A stretch of DNA of 58,885 bases from a virus (taxonomy: Duplodnaviria; Caudoviricetes): positions 1 to 58,885 of the IMG/VR virus record IMGVR_UViG_3300028840_003635, one strand, 5' to 3'. Every line of letters starts with the position of its first letter. Position 1 is the first letter of the stretch. Both the position numbers and the translations under genes were made by a program. A model generated the notes under the pieces. The model had not been told where the DNA came from and searched no databases. It worked only from the letters and a program-made list of their open reading frames with translations. Of this stretch, positions 145 to 52,442 are shown in pieces.

Positions 145-525
145 AATGTGGAATTATTATCGAAACTCACCGAGAATCTGGAAAAATCACCTGGAAAACG
201 AGATTTCCGGAAAAACCATTTCATAAATCTACGTGAAGTCAATGTTGATAAGGAGTTATTTTATGAAAACTATCAAAAATACAGGTTATTGTGGTATTTT
301 GGTGTTTGTTTTCTAGGAAAAAATAGGGGTGATTTATGAAAAAATCCTTTCATACGTTTCGTCTTACAGCGACAAGGGTTTACACGATTTTGAAAAAATC
401 TATGAAATGGCATTTCTTAAATTAAGTTGTTGAATTTAAAGGACTATTTTAAAAAAAGTGCTGATTTAGGAAACAATGCAGTCTTTATAAATAAATATTA
501 CCTGTAAGTAATAAAAAATAGGTAC

Positions 526-554
526 TTGACAATGAAAGTAAAAAAGTATATAGT
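526..554 (+). promoter_or_regulatory. Sigma-70-type promoter
   Basis: TTGACA (526-531), 17-bp spacer, TATAGT (549-554). Confidence 0.65.
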
Positions 555-725
555 ATTTAATAAGGAGAGGTCTGTTAATAAATTAACCAATTGTATTTCT
601 ACCCTTTGGGTGAAGTTGGCGACAGCCGGATCACTATTAACTTTTCTTGTCCTATTCCCCGCCGGATGCGAAAATGAGCAAGTTTTGCAAAAACCCAGAG
701 TCTTTCCTGACATTGACCATGCACA

Positions 726-740
726 TGGCATAATCCTTGC
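726..740 (+). promoter_or_regulatory. Sigma-54 (-24/-12) promoter motif
   Basis: TGGCATAATCCTTGC, GG-N10-GC, upstream of the MTase start at 824. Confidence 0.6.
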
Positions 741-823
741 GATAGATAAATCATTAGATGAACGGATTAAAAGGAACGAGTTTATGATTAACCAGTATTT
801 GTATAACCTTGAAAGGAGAAAAA

Positions 824-1339
824 GTGAATAAGGACTATAAAATACGGAACCACGCATGGGTATTGCCAAGACCAAACAAAAGTAAATATATAGGTAGTTT
901 TCCCTTGCATTTTGAAAAGAAGTTACACAAAGTACTCGAGATAAGTCCAGATGAGCACAAAATACTTCATCCTTTTGGTGGCAAGGCTGAATTTGGAGAC
1001 AGGGTGGATATCAATCCAGAGGTTGACCCAGATTTCGTTGGAGATGCTCACGATATGCACTTTATTAAAGATGAAACTTACGACTTAGTTATAGCAGATC
1101 CGCCATATAGTGAAGAGTATGCAAAAGGATTATACGGAACCAAAAAGCCCAGATGGAAAACTTGGACACAGGAGTGTACTCGAGTTTTAAAAGAAAACGG
1201 TCTGTTCGTTATATATCATTATTTAGCCTGTCCGTCTATACCTAAAACCGTACTTGAGCAAAGAATCTTTTTAGAAACAAGGGTGTGGCACAAACTAAGA
1301 TGTATTCATATACACAGGAAAAGAAGTGATTTATGGTAG
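824..1339 (+). CDS. Small amino-DNA methyltransferase-like protein
   Basis: HPFGG SAM-binding-like motif and DPPY catalytic motif; RBS AAGGAG before GTG at 824. Confidence 0.7.
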   Translation: MNKDYKIRNHAWVLPRPNKSKYIGSFPLHFEKKLHKVLEISPDEHKILHPFGGKAEFGDRVDINPEVDPDFVGDAHDMHFIKDETYDLVIADPPYSEEYAKGLYGTKKPRWKTWTQECTRVLKENGLFVIYHYLACPSIPKTVLEQRIFLETRVWHKLRCIHIHRKRSDLW

Positions 1340-3020: not shown

Positions 3021-3358
3021 CCGAGATTAAGTTTTAAGGAGAAATAACGATGGCAAATAAAACATGTCCATTATTTAAGGCTGCCCTGTTAGGCAATTCT
3101 AACTTAAAAAGAGAATACATAGATTCAGACGATTTTTATTTTGCTTGCGAGTGTACCAAAGAAGAATGTGCTATGTGGACACCTAGAGAATGTGGGTATA
3201 TAGGATGGTCAAACTCAGACCTAACAGGGGCAGTTCATTTAGTCGCAGAGACATTAGAAAAAATGAGGAGCAAATAAAGGAGAGAAAAATGAACATCATA
3301 GAAAATGTATGTTTTAACGAGTATTCACCAACCATTTCAGAACTGGAGGACATATAAA

Positions 3359-4300
3359 ATGACAACGATAAGAGAAGAAATTCATCAAGAACTTTTAGAG
3401 GAGCAATTCTCCCCATCCAAGTCTAATCGGGCTTCTGGCATGGGGAGAAATTGTATCAGGAGATTGTATTTTGAAAGGGTGTGCCCTGAACATAAAACAC
3501 CTTTCAGTGCCGAAGCATTAAAGAGAATGAAAGAAGGAACTATACAGGAGAAAAATGTTAGAGGGTGGCTAACAAACAAAGAGGGCTATGATATATCAAG
3601 ATCTCAAGAGCCATTTGAGTTTAAGGACTTACAATTAACAGGACACTGGGAAGGTTTTTTAAAAAGACCGCAGGACAAAGAACCTGTGTTGTTTGAGATA
3701 AAGACCTGTTCAGAGTTTAAATTCAGGATGTTGAACGACATTAAAGACTTTTATGATGGTAAATGGTGGGAAGGCTATTTGAATCAGGCAACTGTTTACA
3801 TGAAGGCTTCTGGACAGGACAAGATATTGTTTCTTGTAAAGGACAGGTCTTCATGGGACATTAAAGAGTTTGAGTATGAGTTTGATGAGTTTCGATGGGA
3901 GTCAATTCAGGATAAATGTAACGTAGTTAATACCTTCATCGACAAGCTAAATGAAACACCTCAAAATCTTCCCGAATACTGTAATCAGTACAAAGAGTGT
4001 GATGATTGTCTTTTCTTAAACCATTGCAATCCAGACAGGGTAATATCTCTTGAAGGATACAAGAGGGTAAACGATCAAGAGGTTATTGATATAGTAACCA
4101 GACATCAGGAATTAAAGGCACAGATTAAACCTTTAGAGAAAGAATACAAAGACCTTGACAAACACATTAAATCAAGATTTAAAGGCGTAGAAGGTGCTTT
4201 TATAGGCGAACAATATGAAGTTATAGGTAAACTTATACCAAGAAAAGGTTATACAGTTGAGCCTTCTGAATATTGGTCAATGAAAATAAAGGAGTTATGA
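3359..4300 (+). CDS. Cas4/AddB-like PD-(D/E)XK exonuclease with Fe-S-type Cys motif
   Basis: N-terminal Cys (RNCIRRLYF), EIKT, QATVY and C-terminal CDDCLFLNHC. Confidence 0.8.
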   Translation: MTTIREEIHQELLEEQFSPSKSNRASGMGRNCIRRLYFERVCPEHKTPFSAEALKRMKEGTIQEKNVRGWLTNKEGYDISRSQEPFEFKDLQLTGHWEGFLKRPQDKEPVLFEIKTCSEFKFRMLNDIKDFYDGKWWEGYLNQATVYMKASGQDKILFLVKDRSSWDIKEFEYEFDEFRWESIQDKCNVVNTFIDKLNETPQNLPEYCNQYKECDDCLFLNHCNPDRVISLEGYKRVNDQEVIDIVTRHQELKAQIKPLEKEYKDLDKHIKSRFKGVEGAFIGEQYEVIGKLIPRKGYTVEPSEYWSMKIKEL

Positions 4301-9206: not shown

Positions 9207-10106
9207 ATTCTTAGTCCTGATAATCTTAGCGTTGCTTGTCTGTGATGCTGTTTACGAACCGATCAAGGCATACGTGGTAGTTATAGACGGCAAGAGGCAC
9301 AGAGTGCGGTCAACACTGTTACCAGACTGGTCTGTGCAACTGCAATACGATCTATCCCGATTGCAGCCAGGACATCACAGAATCAAGGTTAAGGCTATCA
9401 GCGTGGATGGGATACGGTCAACATATTCGAGAGTAATTAAGTTGGATATCACTGAGGATAGGGAATTATCTTCAGGGTGCAAATATAAAACAAACCTAAA
9501 AGTTACCAGGAATTATAAGGTTTGGAAGGATGGGTTGTTAAAATGAAAGGAGAGAGAAGTGGAATATATTTTTTTTAGCGTAGTAGCAGTATGTATTACG
9601 GTTATAATTATAATTTGTATTATGATTGATTAGTGCTTAGGATTTGAGTTGAAGTCTCTAAATAAACCTGAGAACTCGGAAAGTAGAGATTTATTAGGCA
9701 TAAGGGATAAAGATCCTGGATTTATTGAATTATATAACAAATTGCTTACAAATCAGAAGGCACAAAAGGGATACAGAATTATTAGGAACGAGAATCAAAA
9801 CCCCGAACTGCTGGAGGACAACAATGTTTAAGAGGATATTTAAAACACCAAAAGACGATGACAGTGTAGTTGACAAACTTCAGGATGCTATAAAAAATTG
9901 CCAAACACATCCAATAGTAGTGTTTATGAGTGCAGACACCTTCTATTTTTTAATGAAAGAGATGGATGAAAGGATGAATTATAAAGTATATGTGCCTCAT
10001 TTTGGAATGAAAACGCTGACTTTCGATGAGTCTTACATTCTTGAAAGGGACGGTTTGGAATTTTGTGAGTTTGATTTTGCGTACCCCAGGTATGAGAAAT
10101 AATGTC

Positions 10107-10178
10107 GAGTCCGGTATTGACAATAACAGCGATTAAAAAAATTATTGTTGTTATTAAGTCGATTCGAGAGCCGGACTC
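10107..10178 (+). other. Long imperfect hairpin at the convergence of the rightward and leftward gene blocks
   Basis: GAGTCCGG/CCGGACTC, ATTGAC/GTCGAT and AATAACAGCGAT/ATTGTTGTTATT stems. Confidence 0.6.
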
Positions 10179-10269
10179 AGGGAATTATTGATAATATCTT
10201 ATTATGTTAGCTTTTTTGGGTAGTGTCCTAATTTGAGTTTTTTAAAAAAGGTGATATAATTCATTCAAC

Positions 10270-11496
10270 ATGACTAATAAACTTATATGTGGTGACAATC
10301 TTTCAATAACAGCAAACATGCCAAGCAATAGTGTTGATTTGATTTATATAGATCCTCCATTTTTTAGTAATCGAAATTATGAAATAGTATGGGGAGACGA
10401 AGCGGAAATAAGAAGTTTCGAGGATAGATGGGATGGTGGAATAAATGTCTATATAGACTGGTTGAAACATAGAATCTTTGAGCTGTATAGAATATTGAAA
10501 CCTTCCGGGACTTTTTACTTACATTGTGATTGGCATGCTTCTCACTATTTGAAAGTAATGTGCGATGATATATTTAGTTACAATAATTTTAGAAATGAAA
10601 TAATTTGGTGTTATAGAGGAGCTGGATATCCCAAAAATGATTTTGGGAAAAGGCATGATAATATACTGAGATATTCAAAAACAGATGTATATACATTTAA
10701 TGTTGATGAAGTAAGAGAAGAATATGCTGAAGCAACAAAAGAGAGATTTAAACATTATATAGGCAATATTAGGGACGGAAAAGATTTTGGCGAACAAAAG
10801 CTACACCCTCTTGGCAAAAGACCAGATGATTGGTGGCAAATTCAACCAATTGCACCTTCTGCAAGAGCAAGAACAGGTTATCCAACACAGAAACCAGAAG
10901 AATTATTAGATAGAATAATTAAATCCAGCAGTAACGAAGGAGATTTAGTGCTTGATTCTTTTTGCGGATGTGGAACTACGCTTGCATCGGCAAACAACTT
11001 TAAAAGAAAATGGATTGGAATTGATATATCCCCTTCTGCAATTACTTTAATTAAAAGCAGGTTGAGTAGGATTGGAGTTAAAGAAGAAGATTATCTTGTT
11101 ATTGGTATGCCAAAATCAATTGAAGAGCTGAAGAAATTTACTCATTTTGATTTTCAGTTTTGGGTGATAAATGAATTGCATGGCATGCCAAGCCCCAAAA
11201 AAACAGGCGACATGGGAATTGATGGATTTTCTTACATGAAACATTATCCAATGCAGGTAAAACAGCAAGAAAAAGTGGGGAGAGTAGAAATTGATAAATT
11301 AGAAACAGCTATTAGTCGTTATAACGAAAACAACGAACACAAGATAATGAAGGGATTTATTATAGCATTTAGCTTTGGTAAAGGTGCGAAAGAGGAAGTA
11401 ATAAAATCTCAAAAAAGAGGATTTAAAATAAAATTGGTCACAATTCAAGAAATTTTAGACAAAAATTTTACTGTCGATGATATGATTGCATTTTAA
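10270..11496 (+). CDS. Beta-class N6/N4 DNA methyltransferase fused to a C-terminal Mrr-like endonuclease domain
   Basis: DLIYIDPPF, YPTQKP and DSFCGCGTT motifs; C-terminal GDMGIDG...MQVKQ. Confidence 0.88.
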   Translation: MTNKLICGDNLSITANMPSNSVDLIYIDPPFFSNRNYEIVWGDEAEIRSFEDRWDGGINVYIDWLKHRIFELYRILKPSGTFYLHCDWHASHYLKVMCDDIFSYNNFRNEIIWCYRGAGYPKNDFGKRHDNILRYSKTDVYTFNVDEVREEYAEATKERFKHYIGNIRDGKDFGEQKLHPLGKRPDDWWQIQPIAPSARARTGYPTQKPEELLDRIIKSSSNEGDLVLDSFCGCGTTLASANNFKRKWIGIDISPSAITLIKSRLSRIGVKEEDYLVIGMPKSIEELKKFTHFDFQFWVINELHGMPSPKKTGDMGIDGFSYMKHYPMQVKQQEKVGRVEIDKLETAISRYNENNEHKIMKGFIIAFSFGKGAKEEVIKSQKRGFKIKLVTIQEILDKNFTVDDMIAF

Positions 11497-11529
11497 TAAA
11501 TTTAACACCCATAAGTAAAAAGATCCTCT

Positions 11530-11589
11530 ATTTCCCTCTACAAGAGCTAAAATAACCTGTTTTTTCTTTTCTGAAGAAAGGTTGTTCAT
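11530..11589 (-). pseudogene. Truncated IS1-family-like transposase (first ~20 codons only)
   Basis: RBS AAGGAG then ATG at 11589; MNNLSSEKKKQVILALVEGN resembles the HTH start of these transposases, and similarity stops after VEGN. Confidence 0.7.
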
Positions 11590-11606
11590 ATTGAGTCTCC
11601 TTGTAC

Positions 11607-11635
11607 TTGACAAAGAACTCAAAAAAACATATATT
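11607..11635 (+). promoter_or_regulatory. Sigma-70-type promoter directed antisense to the tRNA genes
   Basis: TTGACA (11607-11612), 17 bp, TATATT (11630-11635). Confidence 0.65.
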
Positions 11636-11726
11636 GTATATGTGAACGTTCCTTGATTCTTTGTCAAGGTATGTACGGGGTCTTCAGCTACTTGGCGGTT
11701 GCGAAGACTCCAAGTTAATAATGCGT

Positions 11727-11794
11727 TGGAGCAGGAGGGATTTGAACCCTCTACCATGCGTTTATAAGACGCTGGCAGAACCCATTCCTGCCCC
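11727..11794 (-). tRNA. Irregular tRNA: Ala-type acceptor (G3.U70, A73), anticodon UAU (Ile), reduced D-arm, no encoded CCA
   Basis: GGGGCAG GAATGGGTTCTGCCA GCGT-CTTATAA-ACGC ATGGTA GAGGG-TTCAAAT-CCCTC CTGCTCC A. Confidence 0.75.
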
Positions 11795-11813
11795 ATATGT
11801 TTATTAATGCGGA

Positions 11814-11898
11814 TGTGAGTGAGGGGACTCGAACCCCTAACAGCTTGAACTGTGATAAGTTGGGAACTTATTCCGCATACCAGTTCCGGCACACTCAC
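11814..11898 (-). tRNA. Class II (long variable arm, Leu/Ser-like) tRNA with anticodon CCC (Gly), no encoded CCA
   Basis: GTGAGTG TG CCG-GAACTGGTATG-CGG A ATAAG-TTCCCAA-CTTAT CACAGTTCAAGCTGTT AGGGG-TTCGAGT-CCCCT CACTCAC A. Confidence 0.85.
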
Positions 11899-11907
11899 AA
11901 AACTTTT

Positions 11908-11946
11908 AAGGTTCCAGCAGGTACGTAGTGTTGGAACCTTTTTTTT
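11908..11946 (+). terminator. Intrinsic terminator
   Basis: 12-bp stem AAGGTTCCAGCA/TGTTGGAACCTT followed by a T-run. Confidence 0.75.
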
Positions 11947-12102
11947 ATTAAAATGGCAATTCTTTTTCACGTACAGGCTCCTTTTTTGGGAAAAAATAAT
12001 TTGTTTGCTCTGAAATAATGATAAAATCATCTTAAACGGTACGGGGCTTAATTAGCTTAATAGTTTTTTGCATTTAGTTACACCTCGAAAGGAGGTGATA
12101 CT

Positions 12103-12309
12103 ATGGGCAGAAACGATTTTTCAATTTGGTTTCAATCCGCAGTATGCATAGGAACTGCCTTGACAGTTTTTACCTATGAATTTATTAACATGTCGAATCA
12201 CCAAGAGAAATATCATATAGAGCCGGTAATTAAAATGCAAATCACTCCGAACCATAGTTCTTTTTATGGTTTGAGCGAAGGCACTACACCCTCCAGTGTA
12301 ATACCTTAA
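12103..12309 (+). CDS. Small single-pass membrane protein (type I toxin-like architecture)
   Basis: Strong SD AAAGGAGGTGA in hairpin CACCTC/GAGGTG; hydrophobic FSIWFQSAVCIGTALTVFTYEFI; flanked by long-range inverted repeats. Confidence 0.6.
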   Translation: MGRNDFSIWFQSAVCIGTALTVFTYEFINMSNHQEKYHIEPVIKMQITPNHSSFYGLSEGTTPSSVIP

Positions 12310-12340
12310 CTGTTCTAAGCTAATAAGCCCCATTTTTATT

Positions 12341-12496
12341 TCAAATTAGGACACTACCCTTTTTTGAAGTATTTTTACTAGGTCTTGTCGCCAATTTGCA
12401 ATTTTTTCTAGCTTTCTGCAGGAGGTCATCTATCAATTTTTTACAGAGTTCTCTGTTTTCTTTGTCTTGGTATGTTTTTATCCAGTCTCCTGTCAT
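12341..12496 (-). CDS. Small phage ORF whose 3' end is replaced by the element's TIR
   Basis: MTGDWIKTYQDKENRELCKK...NTSKK; the reconstructed empty site ends SKKLT*, the current allele ends SKKGSVLI*. Confidence 0.5.
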   Translation of the reverse strand: MTGDWIKTYQDKENRELCKKLIDDLLQKARKNCKLATRPSKNTSKKGSVLI

Positions 12497-12566
12497 ATCA
12501 ATCCTTCTCCTTCACAGGTGTTAATAAAACATTTCATGTCCTTCACAGCATTAAAGAATACTTGAT

Positions 12567-12770
12567 TTACTCTCCAAAATCCAGAAACAATATAATCTGC
12601 TCTGCTTTATTGAAAATGTCTACAGCTTTTTGATTGTTCGAAGCCCTTGTGGATTTCATTAAATTGTCCGCAATGCCCCTTATCTCTCCTGCTATATCCT
12701 TAATATTGTCAAGATGTGTATCAAGGCAATCCATGTTATTTTTCACTCTTTCTAGAATCTTATTTCTCAT
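12567..12770 (-). CDS. Hypothetical protein
   Basis: RBS AAGGAG; coupled to the upstream gene. Confidence 0.7.
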   Translation of the reverse strand: MRNKILERVKNNMDCLDTHLDNIKDIAGEIRGIADNLMKSTRASNNQKAVDIFNKAEQIILFLDFGE

Positions 12771-12773
12771 GAT

Positions 12774-13271
12774 TTATTCTCCTTTATACACTTTCATTAA
12801 TTTTTTCTTGTCAGCACCTTCGATATACCTTGCAAAATAATAACACCACCCGGCATCCTTGCTGGTAATAACGATCTCCTGTAGCCTCTTGATGTCTGCA
12901 CCAGCGACATCTATTGCAAAACAATAACACCACCCGGCATCTTTGCTGGCAAGTACCACTTCCTGTAATCTCTCAATGTCTGCACCTTCGATATGCTTTG
13001 CAAAATAGCAACACTGCTCAGCATCCTTGCTGGTAAGTACTATCTCTTGTAACTCTTTAACTTCAGGATGGCTTATATCTAAGTCGTACTCTCCTATCGC
13101 CCATAGAACGTCTTCTATACCACAGATCTCATAAATTTGCATTAGCGAAATAGGGGTGGTCATTCCATATTTTTCGATCCCTCCAAGACCTTTTATGAGA
13201 TGTTTATATCTGCCCTTACACACTCCATGCTCTTTTAATGTCTCAAGACTAATTATTTCTGGATGTTCCAT
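12774..13271 (-). CDS. Helical repeat protein (three ~28-aa repeats)
   Basis: LQE(I/V)V(L/I)xSKDAxxCxxFAxx(I/V)xGAD repeated three times. Confidence 0.8.
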   Translation of the reverse strand: MEHPEIISLETLKEHGVCKGRYKHLIKGLGGIEKYGMTTPISLMQIYEICGIEDVLWAIGEYDLDISHPEVKELQEIVLTSKDAEQCCYFAKHIEGADIERLQEVVLASKDAGWCYCFAIDVAGADIKRLQEIVITSKDAGWCYYFARYIEGADKKKLMKVYKGE

Positions 13272-30001: not shown

Positions 30002-32509
30002 ATGAGTAAAAAGAAGAAGAACAGGGAGATGCCGATAATATCGTATGTAATGGTAACCTGTCAGGGTGGTTTGCCTGATACTATCAGGGCGATAAACTCT
30101 TTAAAGAAGAGCAATACGGTTCCCTATGAGCTTATAGTGGTCGATAACGGAACTTCTGATGCTACTACTGCATGGTTGAAGGGTAGCAAAATACAGTATG
30201 TTAAGATAAATAATCTTGTTTCTTACGGAGAGGCTTTAAATAAAGGTTTAAGGCAATGCAGGGGACAATTCATAGGTATATTGAATAATGATATTGTTGT
30301 TACTCCTAATTGGGAGTCTGCAATGCTGTTTGTTTTCAAACAGGCAGAGAAGGGCAGGCTTGTAGGAGTGGATAGGGTCGGAATAGTAGGTCCTATGTCT
30401 AACGCTGTAGGATATGATCAGTGTATTGATCAGAACTTCCTTGCAAAGGTTAATTATCAAAACAATGATGATGCGATCCACGAGTTTGGAGTTCGCTGGT
30501 TTAACCGGATGTGGAGCAGTCAGGAACCGGAGTTAAAGGATAAGTGCAAAAGGACTGGTTTTTTATCGGGCTTTTGTTGGATTATGAGCAGGGATTGTTA
30601 TAAAGGTGTAGGAGATTTTGCAGAGGATTTAACGCCAGGTGGCTTTGAGGATAACGACTATGTTCACAGGGCTGAACTTGCGGGATTTGCTTCTTATATA
30701 AGCCTTCCTTCTTTTGTTCATCACGAAGGTGGGTTGACCTTTAAAGCGTTGAACATGCCTGAAGCAAGACGTGGTATGGCTAACAGGATACCTTTTTATA
30801 ATAAATGGATGGAGAATGATAAATTAGAACAACAGCAAACAGAATGGGAAGATGGTGGCAAATCAGCAACGGTTTGGCAAAAACCTAAAAAACTTGTTGC
30901 AGGTTTAAGGGTAAAAAATGAAGAGAGGTTTTTGTATGAGTGCCTATCTAAGCTATCGGAAGTTGTCGATGAAATTGTTATATTTAACGATAATAGTACG
31001 GATAAAACGGTATCTATCGCAGAGTCCTTCAAGAAGGTTGTCAAGATACATCATTCAAACGAGACGACTTTTAATGAAGCGAGAGACAGAGAAAAGCTCT
31101 GGCAGTTGTGCAGGGAACAAAGTCCAGACTGGATATTGATAATAGACGGCGATGAAGTATTGGAGCCGAGAGTAACAAGAAAAGATTTTGACGAAATGAT
31201 GAACCCTAGAAATCCACAGGTATATTCATGGGTATTCAGGTATATAACTTTATGGGATTTGCCGGACAAGCAGAGAGTGGATGGGACTTTTAGCATGAGG
31301 TTTGGACCTAGACTTGCGAGAAATCTACCTAACTATCACATTACAAGCGATCATCCTATAGGATTGCACTGCGGAAGCGTTCCTGAATACCCTAAATATA
31401 ACGTGTTCTTTTCAAAGTTCAGGATATTACACTACGGCTATATGGACAAAGCTGACAGGGTAAAGAAGTACGAATGGTATGAAGCTAACGACACTGTGAA
31501 AGATCAAAGAGATGTAGGGGACGTTGACTATTCTTACTTGATGGATGATTTTGCTCAGATAATACCTTTCAACCCAGACTTAACTCTTGGTATGGTAACC
31601 TGCGTAAAAGATGAGATGAAGTTGCCTGAGGCTCATTTGGAAAGGTTTTTGAGCTTATATCACTATATTTTTGATGAGATTATCATTGTTGATACCGGAT
31701 CTACGGATAACAGTGTAGAGATAGCGGAGTATTACGGTGCTAAGGTTATTCATCACAAATGGGAAGACGATTTTGCAAAAGCCAGAAATGCAGGTCTGGA
31801 CCATTGCACAACTACTTATGTTATGCACGTAGATCCAGATGAAGGTTTTGGAGGGGACGCTATCAGGTTTCGCAGATGGATAGAGATGCCATGCCTTGCA
31901 TACAGGGTTCCGATAAGGCATCCAAAAGAAGGCTCCGAACCTATGCTAACGTGGAAATGCAGGATATTTAAAAACCTGAAAGAAATAAGATATCAGGATG
32001 CTGTACATGAGCAGATAGAAAGTTGTTTGAAAGATATTAAAGGGCATGGACCCATAATCCCTGTTGTTTATGATGAAAATCAGAGGTTTCAGGGAATCAT
32101 GCATTATGGTTTTCAGAAAGAAGATGGGTTTTTAACCAAAAAGATGGAGCATTACAGGGAAATTAACCAGAAGATGCTGGAGAAAGACCCCGAACATTAT
32201 TATGCTAACTATTCTCTTGCTTTACACTATGCAACGCATGGAGAAGAAGAGAAAGCGATGGAGTATCTTGATGTAGCTATGAAATCGAGACCTGGTTTTG
32301 CGAAAGCAAGGTATCAGGCTTGTTTTTCTCATGTAAGGCGTGGGATAAAAATTTTAGAAGAGGGTTTGCCATTTATGGTAGATAACCCTGAAGAGTATCA
32401 GAGGGCACAGCAGATAATAGCTGAATTAAGACAGTATGGTCCTAAATTGCCAATGATAGGCTATGCAAAAAACGATCCTAGAAGGAAAGAACTTGGATTA
32501 TCAGATTGA
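30002..32509 (+). CDS. Multi-domain glycosyltransferase: three GT2-like domains plus TPR
   Basis: LIVVDNGTSD/LNND/FEDND; KNEE...IIDGDE; IIIVDTGSTD...DDFAKARN...VDPDE; C-terminal TPR-like helices. Confidence 0.9.
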   Translation: MSKKKKNREMPIISYVMVTCQGGLPDTIRAINSLKKSNTVPYELIVVDNGTSDATTAWLKGSKIQYVKINNLVSYGEALNKGLRQCRGQFIGILNNDIVVTPNWESAMLFVFKQAEKGRLVGVDRVGIVGPMSNAVGYDQCIDQNFLAKVNYQNNDDAIHEFGVRWFNRMWSSQEPELKDKCKRTGFLSGFCWIMSRDCYKGVGDFAEDLTPGGFEDNDYVHRAELAGFASYISLPSFVHHEGGLTFKALNMPEARRGMANRIPFYNKWMENDKLEQQQTEWEDGGKSATVWQKPKKLVAGLRVKNEERFLYECLSKLSEVVDEIVIFNDNSTDKTVSIAESFKKVVKIHHSNETTFNEARDREKLWQLCREQSPDWILIIDGDEVLEPRVTRKDFDEMMNPRNPQVYSWVFRYITLWDLPDKQRVDGTFSMRFGPRLARNLPNYHITSDHPIGLHCGSVPEYPKYNVFFSKFRILHYGYMDKADRVKKYEWYEANDTVKDQRDVGDVDYSYLMDDFAQIIPFNPDLTLGMVTCVKDEMKLPEAHLERFLSLYHYIFDEIIIVDTGSTDNSVEIAEYYGAKVIHHKWEDDFAKARNAGLDHCTTTYVMHVDPDEGFGGDAIRFRRWIEMPCLAYRVPIRHPKEGSEPMLTWKCRIFKNLKEIRYQDAVHEQIESCLKDIKGHGPIIPVVYDENQRFQGIMHYGFQKEDGFLTKKMEHYREINQKMLEKDPEHYYANYSLALHYATHGEEEKAMEYLDVAMKSRPGFAKARYQACFSHVRRGIKILEEGLPFMVDNPEEYQRAQQIIAELRQYGPKLPMIGYAKNDPRRKELGLSD

Positions 32510-45350: not shown

Positions 45351-45989
45351 ATGAATTTTGTAAGAAAGTATAAGTATCAGATAATGATTGGTGTAGTAAC
45401 TTTTATAGTAGCACACTTCTTAGCCTTGCTGGTGATAAGTAGTTTTGGATCAGGGTCTCAGGAGAGAGATGAATATGAATCTGTTTACAAACAAAAAACA
45501 AAATCTTATGGATTTCCTTTATTAAACAAGGACACTCACAGAGCATTAACCATAGACACCTCTAATGATGTTGTTAAGTTCAGGGTAAAGAAGAATGTAG
45601 AAGATGGATCTTACCAGATAGACAAGACCTGCACCTATGTAAAGAAGTTCACTTATTATGGTTTGAACGGGACTTTTAGTTCTTCCGCATCTGTAACAGG
45701 GGCAACATCCTCAGCGACAGGAACGCTAGAATATATTGACACTAAGGGCAATACCATGTATCTGTCAGGCATAACTGGAACCTTTCAGGACGGCGAAACT
45801 GTTTATGAGACTGCGAACACGATCTATGTAACACTGTCAGATGACGGGGTATGGATGGGAGTAACAACACTGTCCGCTACGGATACAAATTTAGATGCAG
45901 GAGATTATTTTGCTTACGTAGAATTAAGCAACGCATCTCTCAGCTATGATGAAGTTCTTTTAAAAAGCAAATGGAAGGTCGTTCAGTAA
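45351..45989 (+). CDS. Putative virion structural protein with N-terminal hydrophobic segment
   Basis: Ig/BppU-like LSATDTNLDAGDYFAYVE pattern; Thr/Gly-rich. Confidence 0.45.
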   Translation: MNFVRKYKYQIMIGVVTFIVAHFLALLVISSFGSGSQERDEYESVYKQKTKSYGFPLLNKDTHRALTIDTSNDVVKFRVKKNVEDGSYQIDKTCTYVKKFTYYGLNGTFSSSASVTGATSSATGTLEYIDTKGNTMYLSGITGTFQDGETVYETANTIYVTLSDDGVWMGVTTLSATDTNLDAGDYFAYVELSNASLSYDEVLLKSKWKVVQ

Positions 45990-46008
45990 ACGCCTGTAAA
46001 CATTGACA

Positions 46009-46023
46009 TGGCACAATATTTGC
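46009..46023 (+). promoter_or_regulatory. Sigma-54 (-24/-12) promoter motif heading the glycosylation cluster
   Basis: TGGCACAATATTTGC. Confidence 0.75.
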
Positions 46024-46075
46024 ATATAGAAAGTAGTATTATGGTAGTTATCGAACCAAGCTAAAAGGAGAAAAA

Positions 46076-47008
46076 ATGTTCTGGTTGAAAAGGGTAGGCG
46101 GAGAGAGCAAGTCAAACAAGGTAAGAATCACTGATGTCGGAACATTTGAGCTAGAAAACAACTATATTTGCGTTGAGCATGTTCAGGATGCTGATTTTTT
46201 AATATCTGAACATGGACGTAATTTAACAGGGATGGTATTTGAAAAAGTCGAAGATCCCAAACTTCCCGAAAAGCCAATTAAGAAAGAACAAATATTTGTA
46301 AATACTTATAAAAAGGAGAAAATGATTGTGAACCCAAATAGGAACGTATTGATTGTTACCGCCTTTACAAAAGGGTATGATCTTGTTTCTGAATATTTGC
46401 ATCCTGTTTCTAATTATCACTATTTATGCTATACAAATGATTATAAATTTACTTCTGATTTTTTTGTAGTTTCACGATTGCCGGAAGGGAAAACACCAGA
46501 AGAAAATGTTAGGCTCGCAAGGGGGATAAAGTTAAACCTTTCCGACCATTTAACTGTATCTGATTATGATTATATCATCTGGCTAGATGCTAATTGTTCT
46601 TTTATAAGAGAAGTGGATTCTTTAATTGATGACTTAGGAGATGATGATGTTGCAATATTTGGACACAGAGAAAGAAATTGCCTTTATTCAGAGGCAAAAG
46701 CGTGTATTAGGTATAAGAAGGATTCTCAGAGCGTTATAAACAAGCAGGTAAAAAAATACAAGAAAGAGGGGTTTCCTAGCAATTATGGTATGTGGGCAAC
46801 CCATTGCATTGTATATAGACCTACTAGGGAAGCTCTAAGTTTTTTTAAGATTTGGTATGCGGAAGTTACAAACCACTCATATAGAGATCAAATAAGCCTG
46901 CCGTATGCTTTAAAAAAAAGCAAAGTAAAATTTCATACACTGTTAAATGCAGAAATTTTTAGTGTAGAATGGTTTAAGTATGTATCTATAAGAGGGCATT
47001 GTGTTTAA
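46076..47008 (+). CDS. DUF616 (TOD1/MUCI70-like) glycosyltransferase-like protein
   Basis: IWLDAN, HRERNCLYSEA and RDQISLPY motifs. Confidence 0.8.
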   Translation: MFWLKRVGGESKSNKVRITDVGTFELENNYICVEHVQDADFLISEHGRNLTGMVFEKVEDPKLPEKPIKKEQIFVNTYKKEKMIVNPNRNVLIVTAFTKGYDLVSEYLHPVSNYHYLCYTNDYKFTSDFFVVSRLPEGKTPEENVRLARGIKLNLSDHLTVSDYDYIIWLDANCSFIREVDSLIDDLGDDDVAIFGHRERNCLYSEAKACIRYKKDSQSVINKQVKKYKKEGFPSNYGMWATHCIVYRPTREALSFFKIWYAEVTNHSYRDQISLPYALKKSKVKFHTLLNAEIFSVEWFKYVSIRGHCV

Positions 47009-47525
47009 GATAAAAAAGAGCGTGGAAATAAAAAAGAACGGACACCTGTGCTTCGACTTTGGGTGTGGAAAGAGTAAAAAGAAGGGGTATGTGGGAGTAG
47101 ACTGTCAAGATTTTGAATGTGTTGATATCGTGTCTGATGTAAATGGATTTAAAAATATACCAGGGAGTTCAGCTTGCAGAATTCATTCGTGCCATTTTAT
47201 AGAGCACCTAGGGCACGATGATGTATTTTTTGTTTTAAAGCAATGGATGAGAATACTTGAGAGTAGGGGGATTTTAACAATTTATTTCCCAGACATTAGC
47301 TTGGTTATACCAGAAACAAACATAAAAATTGCCATAAATCATGTGTGGGGTTCCAGAAAGGATCAATATGATTACCACAAGACATTCTGGACTGCCAGAT
47401 CGATGATGTTTATGTTGCAATATGTCGGGTATGCTAACGTAAGAACAATACCTTACTTTGGGAAGCTACATCCATACAAAGGAGACATGGCTTGGACTTC
47501 AGGAGTGGAAGGAATTAAAAAATGA
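47001..47525 (+). CDS. Class I SAM-dependent methyltransferase
   Basis: DFGCG, HFIEHL and RILESRG motifs. Confidence 0.8.
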   Translation: MFKIKKSVEIKKNGHLCFDFGCGKSKKKGYVGVDCQDFECVDIVSDVNGFKNIPGSSACRIHSCHFIEHLGHDDVFFVLKQWMRILESRGILTIYFPDISLVIPETNIKIAINHVWGSRKDQYDYHKTFWTARSMMFMLQYVGYANVRTIPYFGKLHPYKGDMAWTSGVEGIKK

Positions 47526-48202
47526 TAAATAAACGACCTTTAAAATTTTACGTTGATAAAATAAAAAATAATGAAGTCTTTAGCTTTTCGAGATATGGAG
47601 ACGGTGAATGGATATATATGACCTGCCCTTCTGGCAGAACCAGAATAAATAAAGAAATGGACTACTTCCCAGAAGCAGCCGAATCTTTAAGAAAAACAAT
47701 TTTGTTTCCGAAAGCAAGTTCTTCTTATTTTTATGGGCTTCAAAGATTAGCTCTAAAGATGTTTGCTGACAAAATACCATCCACTATTGACTGGCATGGA
47801 AGTGATTTATTTCATCATGCTTCGATAAGTGGAGCATTGTCGCCCTTAATAGCTTCTATTGTTGAGAAAGATGTTGTTTTTGTTGGACCTAGGTATTTAA
47901 AAAATATAAATAGCATCATTCCTTACGTGGATTTTATAGAGATAGACGGTAAAAATTGTTATACGCAAATACATGATATATTAAAAAGAATAAAAGATAC
48001 AAAGAGAGAATCTGGCAATATGATATATAGTTTTTCTGCCGGTGCATTTACAAACATTATGATTTATAAGCTGTATGATGAGATGAAAAATAACTGGCTT
48101 ATAGATTTTGGATCGGTATGGGACCCTTATGTTAATCAAAACACAAGGGGTTATCATAAAAAAATGACCAGGGACTTAATAAGTATAAATACAGGAGGCT
48201 AG
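47522..48202 (+). CDS. GT-D-fold (DUF1792-like) glycosyltransferase
   Basis: SRYGDGE and IDFGSVWD motifs. Confidence 0.7.
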   Translation: MINKRPLKFYVDKIKNNEVFSFSRYGDGEWIYMTCPSGRTRINKEMDYFPEAAESLRKTILFPKASSSYFYGLQRLALKMFADKIPSTIDWHGSDLFHHASISGALSPLIASIVEKDVVFVGPRYLKNINSIIPYVDFIEIDGKNCYTQIHDILKRIKDTKRESGNMIYSFSAGAFTNIMIYKLYDEMKNNWLIDFGSVWDPYVNQNTRGYHKKMTRDLISINTGG

Positions 48203-48205
48203 TTT

Positions 48206-48898
48206 GTGGTAATATCTATAATTATTGCTCACTATGGAAACAGCAAATACCTAGAAGATTGTTTACTTTCGATAGAGCAAAACACATATATACCTCATGA
48301 GGTTATAACGGTCAACACCGAAAAACCCAGAATATCTGTGGCTGAGGCGTGGAACGAAGGGATAGAGTCGGCTACAGGGGAAATTGTTGTTATTTTAAAT
48401 GACGATACCCTAGTATCAGAATTTTGGTTGTCTAGGTTGTATTGGTATTTGCAGGCAATAGATAATGCTATGGTTTCGACCCCGTCTACATCTAAATGTG
48501 CAAGCATTATATATACGGAACTCTATGACAAAATGAAACCTGATGTAAAATCAACAGCAGATGTAAATAGATTTAACAAAATAGTGTCTAAATATTACGG
48601 TCTCTCATACAAAAAACTAGCAAGCCATGAAGTTACAGGGTTTTGTGCAATGTTTAGAAAGAAGGATTGGGAGTTAGCTGGTAAGTTTTACAAGGGGTTC
48701 AAATATGCTTATGGAGAAGAAAACGATTTTTTTGACAAGTTATCAAAAAAAAAGAAAGGTGTGTTTGTTTTAGCGAGCGGGGTGTATGTTCATCACTTCA
48801 AAGGGAAAACTACAGAGAGGGTAAAGGATTTAGACCTTATTGCATGTAAGGCATTATATGAAAGGAGAAGGCATGAGCGAAGAAAAAAAACAACATAA
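48206..48898 (+). CDS. GT2 glycosyltransferase
   Basis: ISIII, AWNEG, LNDD and GEEND motifs. Confidence 0.85.
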   Translation: MVISIIIAHYGNSKYLEDCLLSIEQNTYIPHEVITVNTEKPRISVAEAWNEGIESATGEIVVILNDDTLVSEFWLSRLYWYLQAIDNAMVSTPSTSKCASIIYTELYDKMKPDVKSTADVNRFNKIVSKYYGLSYKKLASHEVTGFCAMFRKKDWELAGKFYKGFKYAYGEENDFFDKLSKKKKGVFVLASGVYVHHFKGKTTERVKDLDLIACKALYERRRHERRKKTT

Positions 48899-49442
48899 AA
48901 TAATAGTAGGTGGTATAGGAAGAACGGGTTCAACTGCTTTAATGTGTATTCTTTCTTATCTAGAGTTAGGGACTGGATTTGGGAAATATTCTTATCGAAA
49001 CGAATATATTAACAAACTATTTTTTCTTGAGGGCAGAGAAGAAGCCTATATATATAAAGAGAACGAAAACGCTGGACTTATTCCTGAAAGGTTTGATAAA
49101 TATATTGTAGATTATTTTATATTTTTACAGAGAGATATAAACAAGGCAGCAGCCAGCAGGGTTAGGAAACATCAAGAGGGTTACTGGATGGGGGGATTAA
49201 CAGCCGATACTGAATGGAAGCCTGAAAGACAAAATGCTATTTTATTAGGGAAATATAAATCTCTCAAGAGGTATTTAGAGAAGAGAGACGTCCCTGTGGT
49301 TGAAATAATTTACCCAGACTTTATAAAGGATGTTGATTATTTATATGAAAAATTGCTTTTGCCGTTTCCTTGCCTTGAAAAAGACAGGTTAAAAAAGGCT
49401 TTTGATTTAATAATCTATAAAGATACGGAGGGATATAAATGA
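48873..49442 (+). CDS. Sulfotransferase-like P-loop protein
   Basis: GIGRTGSTAL (PAPS-binding-like loop) and R...AAS motif. Confidence 0.55.
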   Translation: MSEEKKQHKIIVGGIGRTGSTALMCILSYLELGTGFGKYSYRNEYINKLFFLEGREEAYIYKENENAGLIPERFDKYIVDYFIFLQRDINKAAASRVRKHQEGYWMGGLTADTEWKPERQNAILLGKYKSLKRYLEKRDVPVVEIIYPDFIKDVDYLYEKLLLPFPCLEKDRLKKAFDLIIYKDTEGYK

Positions 49443-50062
49443 GAATAGCGGTATTAACTTGCGATAAGTATAATTTTTTGATTCCCTATTTCTGGCATTT
49501 TTTTAAAAAGAATTTTCCAGACAATCCGTATCCTGTAGACTTTGTAACTGAGACAGAGAGAATATATTTTGGGGACAATGTTTTCTATGGCGGGAAAAAT
49601 CTATGGTCAACTCTTTTGCAAAATTATCTAAAAACAGTAACAGATGACAAGATACTGATTTTATTTGATGATTACATGATTTATGGTGTAGATCTCAAAA
49701 AAACAAAGGAAGCGGAAAGTCTGTGCTGTGGGGAGGTAGGCTGTATAAATTTAATCAAAATGAATTGTGAAAAGGCTCTCGTTTATCCTGACGGGATGGA
49801 TGGATATCTTACCAAAGATTTTAACTCAGAGATAACTACCGGATGTCAGGCTACAATTTGGCAAAAAGATTATCTCAAGGAAGTTTATCCTGAAGGTAGA
49901 GATAGTTGGAAAGCAGAGACATACGGATACAGAAAAATGAAAACTCTGAACAAAAAGGTTTTATATTCAACCACTCCCATATTTTCTTATGTGCATGGTG
50001 GTTGCATGATAAAAGGCAATAAGGTCGATGCAGTATTTAAACAAATGGCGGAGAAATGGTAA
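49439..50062 (+). CDS. GT-A-fold glycosyltransferase-like protein
   Basis: TCDKY, ILFDDY, QATIW and WKAE motifs; cluster context. Confidence 0.55.
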   Translation: MRIAVLTCDKYNFLIPYFWHFFKKNFPDNPYPVDFVTETERIYFGDNVFYGGKNLWSTLLQNYLKTVTDDKILILFDDYMIYGVDLKKTKEAESLCCGEVGCINLIKMNCEKALVYPDGMDGYLTKDFNSEITTGCQATIWQKDYLKEVYPEGRDSWKAETYGYRKMKTLNKKVLYSTTPIFSYVHGGCMIKGNKVDAVFKQMAEKW

Positions 50063-51147
50063 TGGAATGGACAGATGCATATAATCCTTTTAATAGTTTT
50101 AAAGTTTTAGTATGGTCTAAGCAGTTACAGAACCTTGCAAATGGGAAGATTCCTTTGCCCGTAACTGTAGATACAGATCCAACAACAAGATGCAATTATA
50201 ACTGCATATGGTGTAATGCTCAGAAATATAGAGCAAAAGGACAACATACCCTGTCCGAAGAGCAGTTAGATAACCTAGTAAATATATACTCTAAGATGGG
50301 AGTTAAATCTACTTGTATTGCAGGAGGTGGCGAACCCACTTTAAACCCGCACCTTGCAAACTTTATAACAAGTCTACATGTGAACAACATAGAGACAGGG
50401 ATAATAACAAACGGATCTTCGATGACGAAAGAACAATTAGTGTCTATTGCAGAAGGGTCAAGGTGGTGCGGATTCTCTGTAGACGCTGGTAATGCGGGGA
50501 CTTATGTTAAGGTTAAGGGAATAAAAGACAGAAAATATTTCAGGATAGTCATTAAAAACATAGAATCTCTGTGTAATTTGATTCAAAAGTTTAACCTGAA
50601 ACCTAAGTGTGAAGTTGCTTTTAAGTTTTTAGTATCCCCTGACAACATCAACAGCATATACGAAGCAACGAGAGTTGCCAGGGAATGTGGAGTAGACCAT
50701 TTCCATTTAAGACCTGCCTGTGTTGATAACTTAGAGTCTTTTATTGCTCACAAGAGGTATATGTTTCATAGCTATTTAGAGACGTTTTCTGTAGAGACTG
50801 AAAAGGCAAGGAGGCTGGAAACTAAGGACTTTAAAGTGTATGTTGTAAAGCATAAGTTTAACAATTTTTTAGGCAGAAAGGTGGGTTTTAAAAAATGCAG
50901 GGCAACTCCCCTGCTTGCAACATTCGGAGCTGATGGGTATTGCCATCTATGTTTTGACCTTCGGGGTAAAGAAGATTTTATTATGTGTAAACATGAAGAT
51001 ATCATGGATTTTTGGGGGAGTGATAGGCATATCGAGATGATTGACTCAATAGATCCTGAAAAGTGTCCGAGGTGCACCTTTGGAGCTTATAACGAAATTA
51101 TAGAGAAGGTTTTTATTGAGGACAAGATGTGCAAGAATTTTCCATAA
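50056..51147 (+). CDS. Radical SAM protein with C-terminal SPASM/twitch-like Cys domain
   Basis: CNYNCIWC, GGGEP, C...ADG..CHLC...CPRC. Confidence 0.9.
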   Translation: MVMEWTDAYNPFNSFKVLVWSKQLQNLANGKIPLPVTVDTDPTTRCNYNCIWCNAQKYRAKGQHTLSEEQLDNLVNIYSKMGVKSTCIAGGGEPTLNPHLANFITSLHVNNIETGIITNGSSMTKEQLVSIAEGSRWCGFSVDAGNAGTYVKVKGIKDRKYFRIVIKNIESLCNLIQKFNLKPKCEVAFKFLVSPDNINSIYEATRVARECGVDHFHLRPACVDNLESFIAHKRYMFHSYLETFSVETEKARRLETKDFKVYVVKHKFNNFLGRKVGFKKCRATPLLATFGADGYCHLCFDLRGKEDFIMCKHEDIMDFWGSDRHIEMIDSIDPEKCPRCTFGAYNEIIEKVFIEDKMCKNFP

Positions 51148-51159
51148 GGAGAACAAATA

Positions 51160-51909: not shown

Positions 51910-52442
51910 TGGATACTTATGAAAATAAAATAAAGGGAATGATGGGAGCAAAGGATTTGATGTGGCTTTACAATATTGCTCAAAAAATGAACAGCATAGT
52001 GGAGATTGGCTGTTGGTCTGGCAAAAGTACTCATGCCTTATTGTCTGGGTGCAAGGGAACTGTATACGCTGTTGATCACTGGATTGGTAGTAGTTACAGC
52101 AACCTTACAAAAGGAGAAAAAGAAATTCACGATCTTGCTATAAGCGGAAAGGTGTTTGACAAGTTTAAGAGGAATGTTGGTCATTTTAAAAACTTAAAAA
52201 TTCATAAAATGGAAAGCATGAAGGCTGTAAAAAAATTCAAAAACAAGTCAGTTGATATGGTTTTTATAGATGGGTGTCATAGGTACAAAGATGTTTGCGA
52301 CGACATTAAAGGATGGTTACCTAAAACGAGAAAACTAATTTGCGGGCATGATATTGCTCATGGACCGGTAAAAAAAGCTGTTGATGAACTAATAGGAGAA
52401 CACGAACTAACAGAGCAAAATATATGGTTTAAGTGGTTGTGA
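51894..52442 (+). CDS. Class I SAM methyltransferase (Methyltransf_24-like)
   Basis: VEIGCWSGKS, FIDGCH and GHD motifs. Confidence 0.88.
   Translation: MEKDMMDTYENKIKGMMGAKDLMWLYNIAQKMNSIVEIGCWSGKSTHALLSGCKGTVYAVDHWIGSSYSNLTKGEKEIHDLAISGKVFDKFKRNVGHFKNLKIHKMESMKAVKKFKNKSVDMVFIDGCHRYKDVCDDIKGWLPKTRKLICGHDIAHGPVKKAVDELIGEHELTEQNIWFKWL

Follow-up and report, generated by a model that had tools for sequence, protein, structure and literature searches.

Why would a phage genome carry, between transposon-like ends, two tandem tRNA-like genes whose bodies and anticodons disagree? The question is raised by IMG/VR record IMGVR_UViG_3300028840_003635, a complete virus genome of the Caudoviricetes with direct terminal repeats (58,885 bp, 37% G+C), which was analysed over its full length (hereafter the window). 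On the minus strand lie gene A, a tRNA gene that joins a leucine-type body to the glycine anticodon CCC, and gene B, a smaller RNA gene that joins an alanine-type acceptor to the isoleucine anticodon UAU. Both sit in a short cassette together with a DNA methyltransferase gene and a small open reading frame (ORF). An earlier note on this DNA had proposed that the two RNAs act as a mistranslating toxin which an antisense RNA holds in check. Our own reading is a tentative one, to which we give somewhat less than an even chance: the cassette would be a transposase-less relative of an IS1-like family of insertion sequences (IS), gene A a selected, leucine-charged reader of GGG codons, and gene B an alanine-type RNA.

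We started from gene A (Table 1). ARAGORN calls it at 11811-11899 on the minus strand as a tRNA 'Gly' with anticodon ccc, and the Rfam tRNA model (RF00005) scores 11814-11898 of the same strand at 46.8 bits against a gathering threshold of 29. The gene has a 7-bp acceptor stem, U8 and the discriminator A73, a D arm with a 3-bp stem and an 11-nt loop holding A14, A15, G18 and G19, an anticodon arm with a 5-bp stem and the loop UUCCCAA, a variable arm of 14-16 nt with a 4-bp stem, and a 5-bp T stem. The acceptor branch is split 7/5 in the Rfam alignment; ARAGORN draws an optional eighth pair, U-1:A73, together with the 5-bp T stem. In Escherichia coli, tRNA-Leu identity resides in a long variable arm, a 3-bp D stem with a large loop containing G18G19, A14, A15/U48 and A73, and every one of these features is present in gene A. 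The bacterial tRNA-Gly set comprises U73, G1:C72, C2:G71, G3:C70, C35 and C36 on a class I body. Gene A shares C35, C36, G1:C72 and G3:C70 with this set, but it has A73, U2:A71 and a class II body, and its body does not have tRNA-Gly identity. Neither leucyl-tRNA synthetase (LeuRS) nor alanyl-tRNA synthetase (AlaRS) depends on the anticodon; AlaRS recognises its tRNA mainly by G3:U70. By these identity rules, gene A should most likely be leucylated and should read GGG.

Two claims of the earlier note are borne out here, namely that gene A is a class II tRNA with a Gly anticodon on a body of another type, and that the non-matching anticodons of both genes sit on bodies with anticodon-independent synthetase determinants (Leu-type with CCC in gene A, G3:U70 with UAU in gene B). 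Over its first 34 nt, gene A shares 85% identity with a tRNA-Leu(UAA) annotated in a Vibrio phage. Searches with blastn using gene A alone or gene B alone returned only partial tRNA-like matches (E 0.1 or worse), and no viral contig matched the exact T-arm/acceptor pattern of gene A.

Class II tRNA genes with the anticodon CCC were then sought in 185,579 genomes, with a pattern composed of a UGGUA D loop, the loop UUCCCAA, a gap fitting a long variable arm or an insert, and a T loop. The pattern matched 93 stretches, 80 of which were submitted to ARAGORN and 12 of which were read individually. Five of these 12 loci hold bacterial class II tRNA(CCC) genes that score 50-59 bits as tRNAs, four of them Leu-type and one Ser-type (Table 1). 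Of the other loci, L111, L117 and L146 are archaeal intron-bearing tRNA-Gly(CCC) genes, L112, L126 and L149 are class I tRNA-Gly(CCC) genes that contain an internal duplication or insert, and L090 is ambiguous. The class I genes (L126, 3004-3090; L112, 5057-5137; L149, 4306-4399) have a duplicated anticodon or T arm, or a hairpin insert before the T arm.

When gene A is aligned with the five bacterial genes, 99.2% of the 120 helix cells pair and 13 of the 20 pairs change on both sides, statistics that partly reflect the shared ancestry of all Leu and Ser tRNAs. Each of the six genes is an intact tRNA, as the earlier note had described the stems of gene A; the alignment is no proof that they form one clade. 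The full-length relatives nearest to the acidobacterial tRNA(CCC) are 75-78% identical to it, and in 12 of 13 loci they are tRNA-Leu(CAA) genes. No close paralogue of the Deinococcus gene (L160) exists in its genome; its neighbours are genes for a tyrosine integrase and an IS4/5 transposase. The ORFs that adjoin the acidobacterial and the Deinococcus gene show no similarity to each other (E 2.8) and give no sign of a conserved protein partner, and the acidobacterial one has no match in the phage window. In the Paceibacteria locus (L115), the Leu-type tRNA(CCC) at 2491-2575 sits about 600 nt from a transfer-messenger RNA (tmRNA) gene at 3192-3574.

What carries gene A became clear from the ends of the cassette. 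The cassette spans 10218-12359 (2,142 bp) and is bounded by perfect 19-bp inverted repeats (GGGTAGTGTCCTAATTTGA). In a shuffle control, none of 100 sequences gave two matches, and the IS-like ends of the earlier note are upheld. The exact 19-mer also occurs in 17 other IMG/VR stretches with a G+C content of 43% to 64%, whose flanks are unrelated on both sides. Inward-facing exact pairs were found in L003/L034 (2,992 bp), L036 (2,026 bp) and L038 (792 bp). Where 19-mer loci have genes in common, these sit on the inner side of the repeat: methylase-like genes in L003 and L032/L040, an ORF of about 100 aa in L036, L038 and L041, and transposase-like genes in L003 and L030. Within the L003 element lie genes for a methylase 59% identical to that of the window and for a 275-aa DDE transposase (PF13610, E 2.3e-7; PF03400, E 2.6e-6, 28.3 bits against a cut-off of 24.1). 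This transposase matches the NCBIfam IS1 model NF033558 with E 1.1e-18, at 68 bits below the cut-off of 100.

The window cassette encodes no transposase and is best read as a non-autonomous derivative of this IS1-like family. IS1-family insertion sequences with passenger genes and transposase-less mobile insertion cassettes are known categories. With such elements the present family shares short terminal inverted repeats, a DDE transposase of about 275 aa in autonomous copies, variable cargo and derivatives that consist of ends only. It differs from curated IS1 in the transposase score given above and in its target duplications: possible 6-bp duplications flank two of the four pairs, both of low complexity (TTTTTT in the window, CGCCGC in L038), and none was seen in L003 or L036. 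A variant of the locus that lacks the cassette was not found: the contigs of three DNA runs from which this DNA may have come are identical to the window over 9500-13000, and none joins across the cassette. We also considered the 19-mer as a promoter of a phage RNA polymerase and rejected this, as the genome contains only two copies and both point outward.

The methylase itself is unambiguous (PF01555, E 5.5e-54; PHROG 67 DNA methyltransferase, E 1.7e-69; PADLOC type II methyltransferase, E 9.8e-65). Of the methyltransferase-Mrr fusion described in the earlier note, this half stands, while the Mrr half is a weak match (PF04471 Mrr_cat, E 0.0028) whose 18.2 bits fall below the cut-off of 21. 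Among the 8 cargo proteins scanned with PADLOC, the methylase alone matches a defence model. That the tRNAs travel with the methylase can be discarded, because ARAGORN found a tRNA in 0 of 22 methylase-homologue loci. Other tRNA genes lie inside the 19-bp repeat at various distances: a tRNA-Arg(CCG) at 48 nt in L026 (2046-2186), an irregular tRNA-Tyr with an acceptor mismatch at about 500 nt in L028 (6623-7229), and a regular class II tRNA-Tyr at about 2 kb in L027 (4528-6679).

The 19-mer was also searched in all loci with up to two mismatches. One copy lies 163 nt from an acidobacterial Leu-type tRNA(CCC). In this locus (L198), an inward-facing repeat pair with two mismatches each encloses about 3.66-3.68 kb that contain the tRNA(CCC), a 147-aa ORF, a 276-aa transposase and a 325-aa ORF. 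The transposase is 44% identical to that of L003 (E 4e-83). By our estimate, the probability that such a repeat falls by chance within 200 nt of any of the five tRNA(CCC) genes is about 2e-5. The host is an acidobacterium of about 60% G+C, versus 37% for the phage. That is, searching for homologous elements by their terminal inverted repeats, as the earlier note had suggested, led to the same IS family carrying a Leu-type tRNA(CCC) in a bacterium. Since the same type of tRNA rides on the same IS family there, gene A appears to be selected rather than decaying. The claim that both RNAs are under selection therefore gains support for gene A, where the IS-borne acidobacterial copy and the 99.2% pairing agree, but not for the anticodon of gene B, whose only relative lacks an anticodon loop (see below).

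In L198 the 147-aa ORF (407-850, minus strand) lies just upstream of the tRNA(CCC). Because both are on the same strand and a sigma-70-like promoter site (10/12) precedes the ORF, the two are likely co-transcribed. The ORF has no Pfam match, and the only leads from Atlas are a winged-helix fold and acidobacterial hypothetical proteins. No antisense promoter was seen in L198, which speaks against the antisense control of the earlier note as a shared feature of such elements.

Gene B is a different case. Its acceptor strand GGGGCAG pairs with CUGCUCC, giving G3:U70, and A73 follows. The central loop is the 7-nt CUUAUAA with U33, the triplet UAU, A37 and A38, and the T arm is regular. Only 14 nt separate the acceptor from the central stem, so that a normal D arm is missing; drawn in a cloverleaf-like form, the RNA requires a 3-bp mini D hairpin (GAA-UGGG-UUC) and a central helix of 9-10 bp. 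The Rfam tRNA model gives a borderline score of 32.8 bits (gathering threshold 29), whereas ARAGORN does not call the gene, and its lowest-energy fold in RNAfold is a rod (-34.4 kcal/mol, z -4.7). The two ends also match the Rfam tmRNA model (RF00023), at 33.9 bits and thus under the gathering threshold of 47. Calling gene B a tRNA, as the earlier note did, is therefore right in the letters, in that G3:U70, A73 and the UAU loop are all there, but too generous, so that this claim is confirmed in part. By G3:U70, gene B should be alanylated.

Across the viral contigs, genomes and metagenomes scanned, gene B has one true relative, an RNA at 4452-4378 on the minus strand of L060. This 6-kb viral contig of 36% G+C, which recurs as L086, has no protein in common with the window; the RNA lies between protein genes, beside the portal gene. 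The two RNAs are identical in their first 17 nt and share the acceptor with G3:U70, and their T stems differ by one compensatory pair (G-C in the window, C-G in L060). The L060 RNA encodes CCA. Its central hairpin is unrelated in sequence to that of gene B and consists of 8 bp, a tandem G/A internal loop, 2 bp and a tetraloop, with no anticodon loop. Of the 44 viral matches to the 17-nt pattern, a number no higher than the roughly 100 estimated by chance, L060 alone is real. A structured pattern of gene B returned L060 alone from viral contigs, nothing from genomes and, from metagenomes, the L060 contig again plus one chance match in a repeat-like GC-rich stretch. A covariance model built from both RNAs recovered the two known members only in 38 sources.

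What this small family appears to conserve is the alanine-type acceptor/T-arm unit, together with the mini D hairpin, and not the anticodon. Because the L060 relative has no anticodon loop, reading of AUA by gene B is doubtful, and a role outside decoding, as a mimic of the tmRNA tRNA-like domain or as a processing signal, may be as likely as decoding. The tmRNA model scores the L060 RNA at 46.5 bits against the threshold of 47, through the tRNA-like domain and the first helix only, and in both RNAs 12-20 nt replace more than 300 model positions. Gene B and the L060 RNA resemble the tmRNA tRNA-like domain in their G3:U70 acceptor, in a mini or stemless analogue of the D loop that contains GG and UUC, in the long helix that takes the position of an anticodon arm, and in the T arm. 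Unlike tmRNA, they have no mRNA-like domain, no tag ORF and no pseudoknots, and the helix of gene B ends in an anticodon-like loop. ARAGORN reports neither RNA as a tmRNA. The only match to the exact 25-nt 3' pattern of gene B is an unrelated actinophage tRNA-Ala(UGC), while its positions 24-63 are about 80% identical to phage tRNA-Ile and tRNA-Met genes (E 0.1-6). We rejected gene B as an attachment-site remnant of a host tRNA-Ala or tmRNA, given that both acceptor strands are present and not a mere 3' fragment.

What charging of this kind would mean depends on the code of the phage. Codons were counted in a crude set of 86 ORFs (17,916 codons), which includes two spurious ORFs across the RNA region. 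Of these, 681 are AUA (53% of Ile, 38 per 1000) and 223 are GGG (20% of Gly). Among the Arg codons, AGA and AGG make up 42% each, which together with the share of AUA is a marked bias for a phage of 37% G+C. Against the 22 homologue loci, the 19 AUA codons of the cassette methylase align with I 208, V 47, L 22 and A 11, and its three GGG codons with G 33, S 14, Q 4, P 2 and D 1. As AUA falls at conserved Ile and GGG mostly at Gly, the code of the phage is standard (AUA is Ile, GGG is Gly), and we reject codon reassignment. Leu inserted by gene A, or Ala by gene B, would therefore be mistranslation, and the phage's own proteins would be affected.

Natural tRNAs whose body identity disagrees with the anticodon have been described before as allo-tRNAs (Mukai et al. 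2017, Nucleic Acids Res.; PMC5389517). According to the main text of that paper, they occur in Acidobacteria and phages, some are lethal missense suppressors, and the species with UAU is abundant, takes no part in translation and is associated with transposons and with genes of toxin-antitoxin systems. As defined there, allo-tRNAs have a 12-bp acceptor branch split 8/4 or 9/3 on a Ser-type body; gene A is split 7/5 (8/5 only if U-1:A73 is counted), with a Leu-type D arm and A73, and gene B is far smaller and carries G3:U70. The string 'CCC' occurs 0 times in the main text of PMC5389517, and its supplementary lists, which lay outside the search, may hold earlier sightings of CCC or G3:U70 species. 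The genome-encoded, dual-identity tRNAProX of Streptomyces, as outlined in the text of PMC11415595, likewise inserts one amino acid at the codon of another. It comes with a dedicated synthetase (ProRSx) and A33/A34 oddities, whereas the window shows no synthetase among its scanned ORFs and the carrier is a transposon in a phage.

The earlier note had placed a promoter-terminator pair on the strand opposite the two RNA genes. Both elements are present on the plus strand (Table 1). The promoter-like site lies within a 12-bp inverted repeat (11607-11669) that folds at -20.3 kcal/mol (z -4.6); promoter-like sites in the region are no more frequent than in shuffles (4 seen, 4.2 expected), and this part of the claim is correspondingly weaker. 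The terminator-like hairpin has a 12-bp stem and folds at -17.1 kcal/mol (z -4.2), a stability that none of 200 shuffles reached; its minus-strand counterpart is less stable (-12.4 kcal/mol) and lacks the U run. A simple terminator scan skipped the hairpin, whose loop measures 9 nt. The two elements make it plausible that a plus-strand RNA of some 300 nt is transcribed antisense to both genes. For the RNA genes themselves, the best minus-strand promoter candidate is a 9/12 match at 12241-12212. Just past the methylase stop, a hairpin at 11547-11599, which matches an Rfam plastid 3' UTR family at 27.5 bits against a gathering threshold of 55.8, may be the terminator of the plus-strand block.

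Downstream of the terminator-like hairpin, the 68-aa ORF lies in a tightly folded region (12034-12345; -90 kcal/mol against -60.8 for shuffles, z -6.2) whose two ends pair and would form the ends of the putative transcript. Its Shine-Dalgarno sequence is enclosed in a hairpin at about 12081-12097 (-16.3 kcal/mol, z -5.7), and the hydrophobic stretch lies near the N terminus, in line with the small membrane ORF with an occluded ribosome-binding site that had been noted before. The protein has no Pfam, PHROG or PADLOC family match, and in Atlas it shows a weak structural likeness to N-terminal membrane helices. In type I toxin-antitoxin systems of the hok/sok kind, a small hydrophobic ORF is preceded by a Shine-Dalgarno sequence in a hairpin, and the mRNA ends pair. 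The unit in the cassette resembles these in its hydrophobic segment, its locked Shine-Dalgarno sequence and its paired 5' and 3' ends. It differs in that the 68-aa ORF has a long polar tail, no homologues were found (Pfam, PHROG, Atlas, PADLOC), and an antisense RNA is only a candidate, the sole antisense promoter candidate against the ORF being a 9/12 match.

Taken together, we favour, with the reserve stated above, the following course of events. A passenger cassette of the IS1-like DDE family would have inserted at 10218-12359, where two convergent gene blocks meet, with a DNA methyltransferase, two hybrid-identity tRNA-like genes and the tightly folded small-ORF unit as its cargo. Gene A would be a functional, selected tRNA and a recurrent passenger of this transposon family; LeuRS, blind to the anticodon, would charge it, and its reading of GGG would lead to some Gly-to-Leu missense rather than to ordinary codon supply. 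AlaRS would charge the compact gene B through G3:U70. What the analysis shows are the RNAs with their sequence features, the IS ends, the transposase of the relatives and the second IS-borne tRNA(CCC); charging, decoding, expression and a benefit to the element are what we infer. Several points weigh against this course of events. The phage makes heavy use of AUA and GGG, and phage tRNAs commonly supply codons of this sort; GlyRS and IleRS depend strongly on the anticodon, so that both RNAs could be charged according to it, gene A by GlyRS through C35 and C36. Our genome pattern covered CCC only, from which an enrichment of CCC over other anticodons is not derivable. Only one of the five bacterial tRNA(CCC) copies lies inside the IS family of the cassette, and these genes are sporadic, the acidobacterial copy being present in 1 of 61 sampled genomes of its family. 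The shared ancestry behind the pairing statistics, the rod fold of gene B and its omission by ARAGORN belong on the same side.

If gene A were charged with Gly and gene B with Ile, their odd bodies being divergent phage scaffolds, the cassette would simply supply codons. Such an account fits the codon usage and the standard meaning of both codons in the methylase, where 33 of the 54 residues aligned with GGG are Gly, as well as the likeness of B positions 24-63 to phage tRNA-Ile and tRNA-Met. It also fits the presence in gene B of A37, A38, C29-G41 and A73, which belong to the E. coli Ile identity set. Nevertheless, we consider it unlikely: neither U73 nor C2:G71 is present in gene A, whose D arm is Leu-type and whose variable arm is long, gene B combines G3:U70 with the loss of a normal D arm and has a relative without an anticodon loop, and the Leu body with CCC is found again on a transposon of a bacterium, a host equipped with tRNAs of its own. 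Likewise unlikely are roles outside decoding for the whole set, in which gene B and the L060 RNA act as tmRNA-domain mimics or as Ala-accepting decoys of SmpB, EF-Tu or AlaRS, or in which both window RNAs serve as RNase P/Z signals or tRNA-nuclease decoys. Here the tmRNA model aligns the acceptor, the D-loop analogue, the first helix and the T arm, the family keeps the acceptor, the mini D hairpin and the T arm and not the central hairpin or its loop, and the L060 RNA with its encoded CCA sits between protein genes; tRNA-like species that are charged yet unused in translation are known, as the main text of PMC5389517 reports. Neither RNA reaches the tmRNA gathering score, however, gene B has a classical 7-nt loop, with U33 and A37, that is spaced from the acceptor about as in ordinary tRNAs, and gene A is a complete tRNA.

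The toxin of the earlier note, which would turn AUA into Ala and GGG into Leu, be held by antisense RNA and serve addiction or abortive infection, seems quite unlikely to us. The strong promoter-like site and the strong terminator that bracket both genes, the sequestered ribosome-binding site and paired transcript ends of the small-ORF unit, and the mobility of the cassette are what such a model would predict. It is also in keeping with the main text of PMC5389517, where missense allo-tRNAs kill E. coli once their expression is induced and the UAU species lies near toxin-antitoxin and transposon genes. But L198 has its tRNA behind a same-strand ORF with a 10/12 promoter and no antisense promoter, the relative of gene B cannot decode, the methylase is the only cargo protein with a defence-family match, and the contigs of the three DNA runs hold no cassette-less variant. 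Moreover, 53% of the phage's Ile codons are AUA, so that an AUA reader inserting Ala would first of all damage the phage itself. That the transposon merely captured functionless, decaying or hitch-hiking tRNA pseudogenes is very unlikely, although the bacterial genes are sporadic, gene B has lost its D arm and no minus-strand promoter better than 9/12 was seen. The helices of gene A and of five independent bacterial examples are all intact, and the change from CAA to CCC needs two substitutions exactly in the anticodon and none elsewhere. Gene B and the L060 RNA keep 17 identical 5' nucleotides, G3:U70 and a compensated T stem in unrelated phages, and the same hybrid type occurs in two copies of one IS family that are independent of each other.

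Table 1. Features of the cassette region in the window, and bacterial class II tRNA(CCC) genes found with the genome pattern.
Feature	Position	Strand	Description
Left terminal inverted repeat	10218..10236	+	19 bp, GGGTAGTGTCCTAATTTGA
DNA methyltransferase	10270..11496	+	408 aa, weak Mrr-like C-terminal part
Sigma-70-like promoter-like site	11607..11635	+	TTGACA-17-TATATT, 11/12; points antisense to both RNA genes
tRNA-like gene B	11727..11794	-	68 nt; G3:U70, A73, mini D hairpin, central hairpin, T arm; Rfam tRNA
tRNA gene A	11814..11898	-	85 nt, class II Leu-type body, A73, anticodon CCC; ARAGORN and Rfam tRNA
Terminator-like hairpin + U8	11908..11947	+	Directly beyond the 5' end of gene A; hairpin 11908-11940
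Structured small-ORF region	12034..12345	+	5' arm (about 12043-12059) pairs with 3' arm (about 12318-12333), then U-rich tail
68-aa ORF	12103..12309	+	One hydrophobic stretch near the N terminus, long polar tail
Right terminal inverted repeat	12341..12359	-	Perfect inverted match to 10218-10236
Leu-type tRNA(CCC), L099 and L156			A73; Pyrinomonadaceae
Leu-type tRNA(CCC), L115			A73; Paceibacteria
Leu-type tRNA(CCC), L160			A73, CCA encoded; Deinococcus marmoris
Ser-type tRNA(CCC), L141			G73; Eremiobacterota

The remainder of the phage genome encodes terminase, portal, tape-measure, helicase and exonuclease proteins, together with SSB, RusA, a pentapeptide-repeat protein, several glycosyltransferases, a radical SAM protein and more DNA methylases. 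About 40 of some 86 ORFs in the window were scanned, and no integrase, transposase or aminoacyl-tRNA synthetase was among them. Relatives of the phage were sought through its sliding clamp (9 pattern matches, 0 confirmed) and with a terminase query (0 matches), and blastn of the locus against GenBank phages gave nothing at E 1e-5; DNA of the phage turned up only in sediment and seawater metagenomes, and no RNA run containing the locus was found. A glycosyltransferase-like block (PF00535, PF11316, PF04765) with the radical SAM gene lies behind the tail genes at 45351-53664, and an 835-aa protein at 30002-32509 has glycosyltransferase PHROG matches. Two more ORFs, at 57924-58688 and 809-1339, resemble N6/N4 DNA methylases, one with E 1.8e-34 and the other as a weak partial match. 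Close to the cassette, an ORF of 165 aa (12774-13271, minus strand) contains three tandem 84-nt units at 12789-13051 that are 72-78% identical and form a 28-aa repeat; its PHROG matches are weak and to families without an assigned function.

Our literature search, which covered titles and the starts of abstracts, found no paper on tRNA genes as passengers of insertion sequences, and at title level mistranslating tRNAs together with phages returned nothing beyond an unrelated review. Hybrid-identity tRNAs are known from a few bacterial lineages. In the present case, the combination of a Leu body and a Gly anticodon is linked with a defined mobile element both in a phage and in an unrelated bacterial genome, and a tRNA gene as passenger of an insertion sequence would be a new class of cargo. 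Gene B and the L060 RNA in turn define a small family of alanine-type mini tRNAs in phages, which may be connected with ribosome rescue, given its likeness to the tRNA-like domain of tmRNA. Beyond the reading that we favour, one transposon family might spread mis-decoding RNAs between phages and bacteria as an RNA weapon or addiction module, with gene A as a Leu-charged reader of GGG, with an Ala-charged gene B misreading AUA or entering ribosomes in a tmRNA-like manner, and with convergent antisense transcription and the type-I-toxin-like ORF as the gate; we regard this wider scenario as rather unlikely. A 2-kb cassette with two small RNAs and a defined transposase family nevertheless is a unit in which it can be tested whether mistranslation is traded horizontally as a trait.

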